A stretch of DNA of 64,000 bases from Escherichia coli (lineage in GTDB: Bacteria; Pseudomonadota; Gammaproteobacteria; Enterobacterales; Enterobacteriaceae): the NCBI RefSeq assembly GCF_003991155.1, contig NZ_CP031293.1, one strand, 5' to 3'. A model generated the notes under the pieces. The model was not told the DNA's origin. It made no database searches and saw only the letters and a list, made by a program, of their open reading frames with translations. Shown piece by piece: positions 20,481 to 24,819 of the stretch. A program made the translations under genes and the position numbers. Numbering within the stretch: the stretch's first letter is position 1; every line of letters starts with the position of its first letter.

Positions 20481-20589
20481 TAAAAAACGCCCCAGTCATT
20501 ACTGACTGGGGCGGCTAAAATATTCAGCCAAATCCGATTACGTGAAGTAAAAGGTCTGAAAGATAGAACATCTTACCTCTGTACCCTAC
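20481..20589 (-). ncRNA. spf: Spot 42 sRNA
   Basis: Reverse complement reads GTAGGGTACAGAGGTAAGATGTTCTATCTTTCAGACCTTTTACTTCACGTAATCGGATTTGGCTGAATATTTTAGCCGCCCCAGTCAGTAATGACTGGGGCGTTTTTTA (109 nt), the Spot 42 sequence with its terminator. Confidence 0.9.
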
Positions 20590-20736
20590 GCGACTAACTT
20601 TACTCTTTTTTGTTCAGTTCAGAAAGCATTTTTTGTAATTTTTTTTCAGTTGTTGCATAGGAATTTCTAATAGCCATCACAAAACGTGACAGCTTATGTT
20701 GCTTACTTACGAAAAAAGGGCATGTTCAGGCGAATC

Positions 20737-23523
20737 TTAGTGCGCCTGATCCCAGTTTTCGCCACTCCCCACTTCCACCAGCAACGGCACATCCAGACGG
20801 GTACAGTTTTCCATCAGTTGATGAATCTGCTTCGCGACGGCATCGACATCATCTTTATGAACTTCAAATACCAGTTCATCGTGTACCTGCATGATCATAC
20901 GTACACGCGGTTGCTCAGCCTGTAGCCACGCATCAACGGCAATCATCGCCCGTTTGATAATGTCGGCGGCGGTTCCCTGCATTGGCGCGTTAATGGCTGC
21001 ACGTTCAGCCGCTGCACGACGAGCACCATTGCTGGATTTGATATCCGGCAGATACAGACGGCGTCCGTCCAGCGTTTCAACGTAGCCCTGCTCTTTCGCC
21101 TGAGCACGGGTGCGTTCCATATACTCCAGCACGCCAGGGTAGCGTTCGAAGTAAAGGTCCATGTACTTCTGCGCTTCTTTACGTGGAATGTTCAATTGCC
21201 GCGCCAGGCCGAAAGCACTCATGCCATAAATCAGACCAAAGTTGATCGCTTTCGCGCTACGGCGTTGCTCGCTGGTTACGGTTTCCAGTGGTAAACCAAA
21301 CACTTCTGCCGCCGTAGCCCGGTGGATATCTTTTCCTTCCGCGAATGCGGTCAGCAAGCCTTTGTCACGCGAGAGATGCGCCATAATGCGCAGTTCAATC
21401 TGCGAGTAGTCCGCCGAGACAATCACATAATCCTCTGGCGCAATAAACGCCTGGCGGATACGACGACCTTCTTCATTACGCACCGGAATGTTTTGCAGGT
21501 TAGGATCGGTTGACGATAAACGTCCCGTTGCGGTTACTGCCTGGTGATAAGAGGTATGTACACGCCCGGTTTTCGGGTTGATCATCAACGGCAGCTTGTC
21601 GGTGTAGGTCGATTTCAGCTTCGCCAGACCACGATACTCCAGAATCACTTTTGGCAACGGATAGTCCAGCGCCAGTTCTTCCAGTACCTCTTCCGACGTT
21701 GACGGCGCGCCACCCGGCGTTTTCTTCAGCGGTTTAATGCCCTGTTTTTCAAACAGAATGGTTTGTAACTGCTTGGTGGAAGAAAGGTTAAATTCTTCAC
21801 CTGCAATTTCATGCGCTTTCTTTTCCAGCTCAGCCAGACGCAAGGTGAGCTCTTCAGAGTGATTGTGCAGCACTTTCGGATCGATCTTCACACCGTTACG
21901 TTCAATGCGTGAAAGCACCGGCACCAGCGGCATTTCGATATTCTCGAAGACGTTCAACGGCCCTTTGTGTTTTTGCAGATCCGGCCACATTTTCAGATGC
22001 AACTGCAAGGTGACATCTGCATCTTCGGCGGCGTAACGTCCGGCTTCTTCGAGGGCAATCTGGTTAAAGGTCAGTTGATTTTTGCCTTTACCCGCAATCT
22101 CTTCAAAAGTGATGGTTTTGTGCTTCAACCAACGTTCCGCGAGGCTGTCCATATCGTGACGCCCGGCAACGCTATTGAGAATGTAGGACTCCAGCATGGT
22201 ATCAAACGCAATCCCACGTAGTTCAATGCCGTAGTTCGCCAGAATACCGCGATCGTATTTCAGGTTTTGCCCGACCTTCAGCGCCTTTTCATCTTCCAGC
22301 AGCGGTTTTAGCAACTCGAGTGCACGCTCGCGAGAGATTTGATCGGGCGCATCAAGATAATCATGAGCAACCGGAATATATGCCGCTACGCCTGGCTCGA
22401 TAGCAAAAGAAAGCCCGACCAGGTTAGCAGAGATGTTATCAAGGCTGTCGGTTTCGGTATCAAATGCAAATACCGGCGCTTTTTCCAGCTTCGCAATCCA
22501 CTCTTTCAGTGTTTCTTCATCAAGGATGGTGACGTAGTTGTCATAAGAAATCACCGTTGCCGTCACTTCTGGCGCTTCGTCTGCAACACTGGTTTCCTGC
22601 GGCCTGGCTGCGGGTTTCACCCCTTTAGCCTGTAGCCATTTGCCCGCTTCGACATCAGCAGTCCAGCGTTTGAACTCATACTTTTTGAACAGCCCTAACA
22701 ACTCTTCCGCCGCCGGTGGCTGCACTTCCAGTTGTTCACAGGTCAGCTCCAGTTCAACGTCGGTTTTAATCGTCGCCAGCTGGTATGAGAGATAAGCAAC
22801 TTCTTTGTTTTGCTCGAGCTTCGCTGCCATTGTTTTCGCGCCACGGAAGCTCAACCCAGCAATTTTTTCTGGCTCGGCATACAGCGTATCCAGCCCGCCA
22901 AGACCTTGCAGCAATGCCTGCGCGGTTTTTTCACCGACGCCCGGTACGCCAGGAATGTTATCAGAGGAGTCACCCATCAGCGCCAGGAAATCGATGATCA
23001 GTTCTGGCGGCACGCCGTACTTATTCACCACCTCTTCCGGTCCGAGGATGGTATTCGTCATGGTGTTGATAAGCGTGATATTTGGTGTCACCAGCTGCGC
23101 CATATCTTTATCGCCAGTGCTGATCAGCACCGGACGCCCGGCTTTTTCGGCTTCGCGCGCCAGAGTACCAATAACGTCGTCCGCTTCTACGCCAGAAACC
23201 GCCAGCAGCGGCAGTCCCATCGCTTTAACCATCGCGTGCAGAGGTTCGATTTGTGCTCGCAGATCGTCCGGCATTGGCGGGCGATGTGATTTGTAATGTT
23301 CAAACAGTTCATCACGAAAGGTTTTTCCCTTGGCGTCAAAGACCACCGCTGCATGCGTCGGTTTATATTGCATGATCAGACTGCGCAGCATGTTGAGGAC
23401 ACCATACATCGCACCAGTCGGCTCGCCTGCGCTGTTAGTCAGCGGGGGAAACGCGTGATATGCGCGATAAAGATAAGATGAACCATCTACAAGGATAAGT
23501 GGATTTTGGGGGATCTGAACCAT
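20737..23523 (-). CDS. polA: DNA polymerase I
   Basis: 928-aa ORF; 5'-3' exonuclease, 3'-5' exonuclease and polymerase domains. Confidence 0.97.
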
Positions 23524-23646
23524 AATGTCCGTGCCTGTTTATCAGATTATGGGTAAAGGATGCCACAGACAGGATGAAAACATGAGTTTTTCACCGCTTT
23601 TCGTGAAAATCTTTTGTAGATCTTCTGGATCGCTCGCAAATCGTCA

Positions 23647-23655
23647 TGTGGATAA
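23647..23655 (+). promoter_or_regulatory. DnaA box in the polA promoter region
   Basis: TGTGGATAA is the reverse complement of the consensus TTATCCACA, about 125 bp upstream of the polA ATG; a second near-match TGTGGATAG lies at 23788-23796. Confidence 0.6.
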
Positions 23656-23886
23656 CTTTGTGCATAAATTATTTACATCACTTTTAATTTATTATCATGC
23701 TTTTTACAGCATGATGTTTATCTTTGTTTTTCATGCAGTTAAAAATAAAGCCATCCCTAATAATTGAGATAATGGGATTTTTTCTAATGTGGATAGATAT
23801 GAATTATTTTTCTCCTTAAGGATCATCCGTTATTTGGGTCGTTTTCTGCTAAAATCTGCGCCTTGCGCTTCTTTAGCGCACTGTCT

Positions 23887-24819
23887 ATGGCTAACCTTTT
23901 GAATAAATTCATTATGACGAGAATACTCGCTGCGATAACCCTTTTGCTGAGTATCGTATTGACCATTTTGGTCACTATTTTTTGTTCCGTCCCGATCATC
24001 ATTGCCGGGATTGTAAAACTATTGCTACCTGTGCCAGTCATTTGGCGAAAGGTTTCGCGTTTTTGTGATTTTATGATGTATTGCTGGTGTGAAGGTCTGG
24101 CGGTATTACTGCATCTGAACCCACACCTGCAATGGGAAGTTCACGGGCTGGAAGGGTTAAGTAAGAAGAACTGGTATCTGCTTATTTGTAACCACCGTAG
24201 TTGGGCAGATATTGTCGTACTGTGCGTGCTGTTTCGTAAGCACATTCCGATGAATAAATATTTCCTCAAGCAGCAGCTGGCCTGGGTGCCATTTCTTGGC
24301 CTGGCGTGCTGGGCGCTGGATATGCCGTTTATGAAGCGTTATTCCCGCGCTTATTTATTACGTCATCCGGAGCGACGTGGTAAAGATGTTGAAACCACTC
24401 GGCGTTCTTGTGAAAAGTTTCGCCTGCATCCCACCACCATTGTCAATTTCGTTGAAGGCTCCCGTTTCACGCAAGAAAAACATCAGCAAACCCACTCCAC
24501 TTTTCAAAACTTGTTGCCACCAAAGGCGGCAGGCATTGCGATGGCGCTAAATGTACTGGGTAAACAATTCGATAAACTGCTTAATGTTACGCTGTGTTAT
24601 CCGGACAATAACCGTCAGCCGTTCTTCGATATGTTAAGCGGTAAACTGACGCGGATTGTCGTACATGTGGATTTACAGCCTATTGCCGATGAGTTACATG
24701 GCGACTACATCAATGACAAAAGCTTTAAGCGCCATTTTCAGCAATGGCTGAACTCATTGTGGCAGGAAAAAGACCGGCTTCTGACATCGTTGATGTCATC
24801 ACAGCGGCAGGAAAAGTAA
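23887..24819 (+). CDS. yihG: PlsC-family lysophospholipid acyltransferase
   Basis: ORF 23863..24819 (TTG in track); probable ATG start MANLLNKF at 23887; acyltransferase HxxxxD-type motif NHRSWADI. Confidence 0.85.

Follow-up and report, generated by a model that had tools for sequence, protein, structure and literature searches.

We have analyzed a stretch of 64,000 nucleotides of Escherichia coli DNA (hereafter the window) that includes polA, the gene for DNA polymerase I, together with the sequence upstream of it. The polA coding sequence, the regulated gene in what follows, occupies positions 20737–23523 on the minus strand as an ORF of 928 codons, with its ATG at 23523. Its divergent neighbor on the plus strand is yihG (23887–24819, ATG at 23887), assigned as an acyltransferase by Pfam. 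The 363 bp that separate the two genes (23524–23886) are collinear with positions 4046603–4046965 of MG1655, where polA starts at 4046966; an MG1655 coordinate g corresponds to window position 23523 + (4046966 − g). Using a query of 601 bp across this region, matches with annotated polA and yihG were obtained in 5,425 of 5,426 complete E. coli genomes. Just downstream of polA lies the Spot 42 sRNA (spf) at 20481–20599 on the minus strand, with an Rfam score of 122.8 bits and E = 2.8e-25.

The initial annotation of this DNA drew attention to a perfect DnaA box at 23647–23655, which can indeed be read directly in the sequence. The plus strand reads TGTGGATAA, giving the box TTATCCACA on the minus strand, 124–132 nt upstream of the polA ATG and equivalent to MG1655 4046834–4046842. 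It is the sole perfect TTATCCACA within the 64 kb, and matches the consensus TTATNCACA / TTWTNCACA perfectly. A further box, the third in the region and overlooked in the initial annotation, lies 3 bp from it at 23659–23667 on the same strand, with the sequence TTATGCACA that also fits the consensus TTATNCACA. The two therefore form the arrangement TTATGCACA-aag-TTATCCACA, with the perfect box as the promoter-proximal half and its neighbor as the upstream half. With a common orientation and a 3-bp spacer, this is a double DnaA box in the sense of Stringer et al. (2024; PMC11317965), who apply the term to two like-oriented boxes with 2 or 3 bp between them.

The double box is occupied by DnaA in vivo. 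The ChIP-seq study of Stringer, Fitzgerald and Wade (2024; PMC11317965) describes 16 bound regions, including a "polA" peak at coordinate 4046831 with 123-fold coverage over the control, which is assigned in Table 1 to the "double DnaA box" tTTATGCACAaagTTATCCACAt. That published sequence is exactly window 23646–23668 on the minus strand, and the peak coordinate converts to window position 23658, which falls between the two halves of the double box, in the 3-bp spacer. The footnote of the table names NC_000913.2, yet its coordinates fit NC_000913.3; we have read it as the latter because oriC is annotated there at 3925744–3925975, and the published oriC peaks lie at 3925806 and 3925943. Coverages given for other sites in the same table are 25 for mioC, 14 for nrdA, 5 for dnaA and 4 for rpoH, with values of 174–218 for oriC, datA and DARS2. 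Ordinary regulated promoters thus fall in the range of 4–25-fold, and the 123-fold coverage of polA is nearer to that of oriC, datA and DARS2.

Other results of that study bear on the nature of the site. At the double box of purH, mutation of either half, or insertion of 1 bp between them, strongly lowers binding. Thirteen of the 32 perfect boxes of the genome are bound, and single boxes are argued to be poor targets for DnaA. The level of polA RNA was unchanged with tagged DnaA, in a comparison that did not address regulation through the site (PMC11317965). Stimulation of polA transcription by DnaA is attributed in reviews to Quiñones et al. (1997; Mol Microbiol 23:1193). The sequences that had been flagged are consequently an already published DnaA-binding site controlling polA. 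DnaA ChIP data had been named beforehand as a means of checking the proposed dependence of polA on DnaA, and the published peak on the perfect box and its neighbor, along with the reviews that cite the 1997 work, bears it out. The link between DnaA and polA is by itself established, and adds nothing new. What requires revision is the identity of the binding unit. The initial annotation had paired the perfect box with a near copy 141 bp away; the perfect box stands as part of the unit, but the published assignment is to the double box and not to that distant pair.

Judged by number, single boxes within the window make a weak case. One perfect box is observed where 0.40 are expected, and 37 of 100 shuffled sequences contain at least one; TTWTNCACA has 7 matches compared with 5.6 expected. 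The argument for something beyond chance therefore rests on the ChIP-seq data and on conservation. Boxes with at most one mismatch are enriched over the window taken as a whole (positions 1–64000), with 30 observed vs 12.0 ± 3.7 expected, a number reached in none of 100 shuffles. This fits a reported excess of DnaA boxes near oriC, in which polA is named among the genes of the zone (PMC12371093).

For the comparative analysis, polA loci of 80 species were fetched using the N-terminal 200 residues of Pol I, making 81 loci with the window. A perfect TTATCCACA in the sense of polA, 92–185 nt upstream of the ATG, is present in 37 of the 81, window included. These comprise all the sampled Enterobacterales except one MAG, together with the Vibrionales and the Alteromonadales in the broad sense. 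No such box was found in ∼40 loci from the Pasteurellaceae, Orbaceae, Pseudomonadales, Oceanospirillales, Cellvibrionales and other gammaproteobacterial orders. Throughout the 37 loci the perfect box is invariant and the double-box arrangement is kept, the xxxxxCACA-(a/g)a(g/c) part being conserved across the three orders.

The near copy of the perfect box is also present as claimed, in the same orientation, at 23788–23796 on the minus strand (TGTGGATAG). This distal box has the sequence CTATCCACA, matching at 8 of 9 positions, and lies upstream of the perfect box at a start-to-start distance of 141 bp; the exact 9-mer ATGTGGATA occurs twice at this 141-bp spacing. The C at position 1 places CTATCCACA outside the strict consensus TTATNCACA, and the same 9-mer is also given as a box at DARS2 in PMC11317965. 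It is a single box, with no partner at 2–3 bp; by eye, the candidate partners match at no more than two of nine positions.

Conservation of the distal box across species is extensive. A box with a TCCACA core is found 127–148 bp upstream of the proximal box in 35 of the 37. In 32 loci it has the form NTNT(C/G)CACA and the same orientation as the proximal box; three Shewanellaceae have AA(A/G)TCCACA at 143–144 bp, and in one further locus the contig is too short to display the distal box. The start-to-start spacing is 141–143 bp in 18 of 18 loci from the Enterobacterales and Vibrionales, and 127–148 bp in the Alteromonadales. In control sequence the distal-box pattern arises by chance at ∼9e-5 per position, corresponding to ∼0.002 per locus over the permitted interval. 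The DNA between the boxes is otherwise unconserved, and in ungapped profiles is unalignable across the three orders. At closer range, the boxes and their immediate flanks are invariant in eight diverse E. coli and E. albertii, with all the polymorphism falling between them. On this comparative evidence the distal box is more than a chance copy; it is a component of an old arrangement of three parts that is tied to polA.

We found no earlier description of the distal box or of the intergenic layout in the literature searched. The available text of PMC11317965 makes no mention of the distal box or its 142-bp spacing, nor of the central IHF-like motif, weak −10 element and helical phasing described below. 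It gives a single peak at polA, with none of its own for the distal box, although oriC peaks only 137 bp apart were resolved; that study thus gives no indication that this box is strongly bound by itself in growing cells.

Several features of individual lineages were observed around the distal box. ST131 strain 751 (locus L086) has a 6-bp deletion of TAATAA at ∼23758–23763, between the IHF-like motif and the distal box, which cuts the box spacing to 135 bp. A group of 359 genomes lies in the 90%–95% identity band over a 161-bp stretch, and these may share the deletion. Six Alteromonadales loci (L022, L024, L025, L026, L035 and L046) contain an extended −10-like element TGTGGTAGTCT, or similar, in the sense of polA, located ∼75–85 nt upstream of the distal box and preceded in L022, L025, L035 and L046 by a cluster of GATC sites. 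This suggests that a second, upstream promoter may read through the distal box in the Alteromonadales. No consensus RNA structure was found around the distal box in this order. In two Vibrionaceae loci, a match to the RyhB sRNA precedes the DnaA-box module, ∼440 nt upstream of polA (L021 994–1058 and L034 1032–1097), with scores of 50.8 and 52.2 bits that are just below the gathering score of 55.

Only one block is conserved between the boxes, and it starts 55–56 bp from the distal box. In the sense of polA it reads YAANNNNTTGATW, i.e., the IHF consensus WATCAANNNNTTR on the other strand. In E. coli the corresponding sequence is TTTCATGCAGTTA at 23729–23741 on the plus strand, midway between the distal and double boxes, with two mismatches to WATCAANNNNTTR. 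The perfect consensus is found in seven loci, those of Enterobacter sp. Bisph1, two Photorhabdus, Providencia, Acerihabitans, Aliivibrio and Enterovibrio, and a version with one mismatch in two more, with the same offset and strand throughout; the background for a motif with at most one mismatch is 6e-4 to 2e-3 per position. Within Escherichia, only the four N positions of TTTCATGCAGTTA vary, as GCAG, GAAG, GTAG or ATGG. A motif that resembles the consensus, but is oppositely oriented, occurs at offsets of 56–71 in several Alteromonadales. An A/T-rich stretch lies ∼8 nt past the core; an A/T-rich tract flanking the core is a feature of classical IHF sites. The central motif is a putative IHF bend site, roughly midway between the distal and double boxes.

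On the polA side of the double box lies a pair of GATC sites (23618–23631), at 23619–23622 and 23628–23631. They are 9 bp apart, and the first is contained within an AGATCT sequence (23618–23623). GATC at +24/25 and +33/34 from the proximal box recurs in most of the Enterobacteriaceae loci, and most vibrio loci have a similar pair just past the distal box. This hints at a possible coupling through SeqA or Dam, or through ATP-DnaA by virtue of the AGATCT motif. Inverted repeats of TTTTCAC / GTGAAAA, largely conserved in the Enterobacteriaceae, are located at 23580–23617, between the double box and the predicted −10 element.

The predicted core promoter of polA is an extended −10 element TGGCATCCT (TGn + CATCCT) at 23557–23565 on the minus strand, 34–42 nt upstream of the ATG, with a predicted transcription start near 23550. 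It was not picked by a generic σ70 promoter scan of the region. The motif is invariant in the Enterobacterales. Among the loci compared, TGGCAT(C/G)CT is confined to those with DnaA boxes; 34 of these have it, 36–70 nt upstream of the ATG. Two box-bearing loci, those of Aliivibrio and one Psychromonas, have a canonical −10 element instead. Where the boxes are missing, the equivalent position is taken by TATAAT, TATGCT or TATTCT, exemplified by CGCTATAATGC in the Pasteurellaceae, TGnTATGCT in the Cellvibrionales and TATTCT in Pseudomonas. In view of these canonical elements we read TGGCATCCT as an extended −10 weakened by the C at −12. Among the four Pasteurellaceae loci (L015–L018), none of the three L015–L017 has DnaA boxes and all three have the consensus −10 CGCTATAATGC ∼35–45 nt upstream of the ATG; here, where DnaA control is lost or absent, the −10 is strong.

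Distances between the perfect box and the −10 element are not distributed evenly. They cluster at ∼49, 59, 71, 82 and 91 bp, with a value of 137 bp in Providencia. Applying the Rayleigh test to 18 lineage classes gave R = 0.61 for a period of 10.5 bp and 0.67 for 11 bp, with p about 0.001, i.e., ∼0.1% of random distance sets do equally well, the lineage classes being partly dependent on one another. Relative to the predicted start, the proximal box is centered near −102 in E. coli and near −58, −70, −82 and −93 in other genera. Such steps of ∼11 bp are as expected of a face-specific upstream activator.

Other candidate promoters were examined and set aside. The sole match of the σ70 scan, TAAACA-18-GATAAT (23720 to 23691, minus strand), overlaps the palindrome discussed below and is no better than those in shuffled sequence. 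It has the palindrome as its spacer and, if real, its transcript would enter the double DnaA box. TTGCGA-15-TACAAA, beside the double box, has a poor spacer and −10 and is found only in the Enterobacteriaceae. Reading TGGCAT as part of a σ54 promoter was rejected, as inspection of the sequences by eye revealed no GC at the required spacing.

The initial annotation also included a palindrome between the boxes. This exists, with arms of 8 bp and a loop of 6 nt as described, ATCATGCT-N6-AGCATGAT, but its position is 23694–23715 (arms 23694–23701 and 23708–23715), 1 bp higher than had been given. In E. coli it is calculated to fold with −10.1 to −10.7 kcal/mol (z of −4.2 to −5.8). Its part in the arrangement does not survive comparison, however. 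The arm at 23708–23715 is substituted in some E. coli strains, and in the equivalent sequence of E. albertii the hairpin is lost (−1.2 kcal/mol, z of 0.09). The palindrome is probably specific to E. coli and without function. An intrinsic terminator was rejected, since the stem has only three G-C pairs, the T run is interrupted and the element is unconserved; this lack of conservation, in E. albertii and in some E. coli strains, also led us to reject a factor-binding site. A search with Rfam covariance models gave no match between polA and yihG, and with no consensus structure either we rejected an sRNA or structured RNA around the distal box.

Could the distal box serve a different purpose, or none? 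The simplest proposal is that the distal box and the palindrome are chance occurrences in AT-rich intergenic DNA, and that only the double box matters. It would explain why single-box statistics in the window are insignificant, why PMC11317965 has only one peak at polA and why a genome of ST131 can carry a 6-bp deletion in the spacer; for the unconserved palindrome, chance is probably the correct reading. It would not explain why the core, orientation and spacing of the distal box have been kept across three orders within unalignable DNA, when the chance expectation per locus is so low, and we think it very unlikely to hold for the distal box and palindrome together. Alternatively the distal box might serve yihG, such that DnaA bound at 23788–23796 regulates the divergent promoter. 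A predicted extended −10 element for yihG, TGCTAAAAT at 23847–23855 on the plus strand, is conserved as TGATAAAAT in E. albertii and Citrobacter, and the center of the distal box, at ∼−70 from this −10, would be at a workable position for an activator. A GATC site is also present at 23821–23824. Yet yihG is found upstream of polA only in Escherichia, Citrobacter, Enterobacter and Klebsiella. Elsewhere the neighbor, on either strand, is dsbA, yihF (DUF945), hemB, a Vut_1 transporter, cytochrome c, another acyltransferase or an unassigned ORF, and the two-box arrangement is unchanged whatever the neighboring gene. The spacing from the distal box to the polA double box is kept in at least 20 species that do not have yihG beside polA. 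The retention of its position next to varied neighbors indicates that the distal box travels with polA. Searches of the literature revealed no relevant paper linking DnaA with yihG by expression or binding, and nothing relevant on yihG and IHF. Nothing thus supports the role in yihG expression that the initial annotation had raised, and there is little likelihood that the distal box acts in this way.

A further proposal is that the module is mainly a regulator of, or sink for, DnaA comparable to datA. Its double box, IHF site and additional single box would then assemble a complex of DnaA and IHF that titrates DnaA or stimulates hydrolysis of DnaA-ATP, activation of polA being secondary. The same parts make up the datA core of MG1655: the double box lies at 4392732/4392744, the IHF consensus at 4392809 on the other strand, and the single box at 4392906. 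The ChIP-seq coverage of polA is closer to that of datA, DARS2 and oriC than to ordinary regulated promoters, the constancy of the spacing, within 1 bp, is suggestive of a nucleoprotein complex of defined geometry, and polA belongs to the zone near oriC in which DnaA boxes are enriched. Against this, polA has the parts in mirror-image order and spaced at 141 bp, vs 162 bp in datA, and the IHF-like motif is degenerate in E. coli. Moreover the module is always directly upstream of polA and in phase with its −10 element, which points to a role in transcription. We consider it improbable that the function of the module is principally that of datA.

Taking all the observations together, the best explanation of the region as a whole is very probably that it is a DnaA-controlled upstream region of polA. 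The basis provided by others is the strong in vivo occupancy of the double box (PMC11317965) and the increase in polA transcription due to DnaA that is described in reviews. On the model that we propose, the core promoter of polA would be a weak extended −10 (TGGCATCCT, with C at −12) lying ∼90 bp downstream of the perfect box, and DnaA would act as an upstream, helix-face-dependent activator of this promoter in a class I-like manner. The distal box would serve as an auxiliary DnaA site, conserved and held constantly ∼142 bp away, with an IHF-type bend site midway. It is likely that the DNA would fold back and bring DnaA bound at the distal box into contact with DnaA on the double box, thereby stabilizing the latter. 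The palindrome would take no part. We consider a continuous filament of DnaA between the boxes unlikely, as no conservation with an 11-bp period is seen in the gap. In Escherichia the outer part of the module looks relaxed, given the two mismatches in the central motif and the 6-bp deletion in ST131.

We would extend this more tentatively to a general proposal. It is possible that an ancient three-part DnaA-IHF module, consisting of a single box, ∼70 bp, an IHF bend, a further ∼70 bp and the double box, is shared by the Enterobacterales, Vibrionales and Alteromonadales and has co-evolved with a deliberately weak polA −10. It might then function as a folded DnaA sensor of fixed geometry that couples the supply of Pol I to initiator status, and in some lineages may perhaps be a datA-like sink or inactivation site. 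The literature searched apparently contains no description of this layout, of the weak −10 common to these taxa or of the helical phasing. This comparative part is a modest and testable extension of known biology. It gains its use from the statement, in PMC11317965, that activation of transcription by DnaA is poorly understood. Across species, the polA module provides a ready-made set of spacings between box and promoter that differ by whole turns of the helix. It also has a weak −10 confined to taxa with the boxes, and a third box whose spacing is fixed, with a bend motif in the center. As polA is among the strongest DnaA-bound sites outside oriC, datA and DARS2, it also raises the question of titration or inactivation of DnaA near the origin.

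The arrangement can be compared with a number of known systems. The polA upstream site of Quiñones et al. (1997) and of PMC11317965 is the identical locus, with the same double box. Described in the latter study are the double boxes of purH, DARS2, nrdA and mioC, which likewise have two boxes of the same orientation 2–3 bp apart, one of them near or at consensus, and high occupancy. The purH site has no further box of at least 8/9 matches within 500 bp, whereas polA has its conserved third box at ∼142 bp. A strong site without a distal box shows that the three-part layout is not general. The dnaA and mioC promoters resemble polA in having a DnaA box beside closely spaced GATC sites, with an AGATCT motif present; DnaA is a repressor of those two promoters, but reviews describe it as an activator of polA.

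The other two comparisons concern geometry. In class I activation CRP acts from −61.5, −71.5, −82.5 and −92.5, and there too the activator site stays on a single helical face while its distance from a weak downstream promoter changes by whole turns. In polA the activator would instead be DnaA, and its positions rest on a predicted start. The datA locus (DnaA boxes 7/2, an IHF site and box 3) drives datA-dependent hydrolysis of DnaA-ATP. It is built of the same parts as the polA module, with its IHF consensus midway on the strand opposite to the boxes. It differs in its mirrored order and longer spacing, and is not a promoter element.
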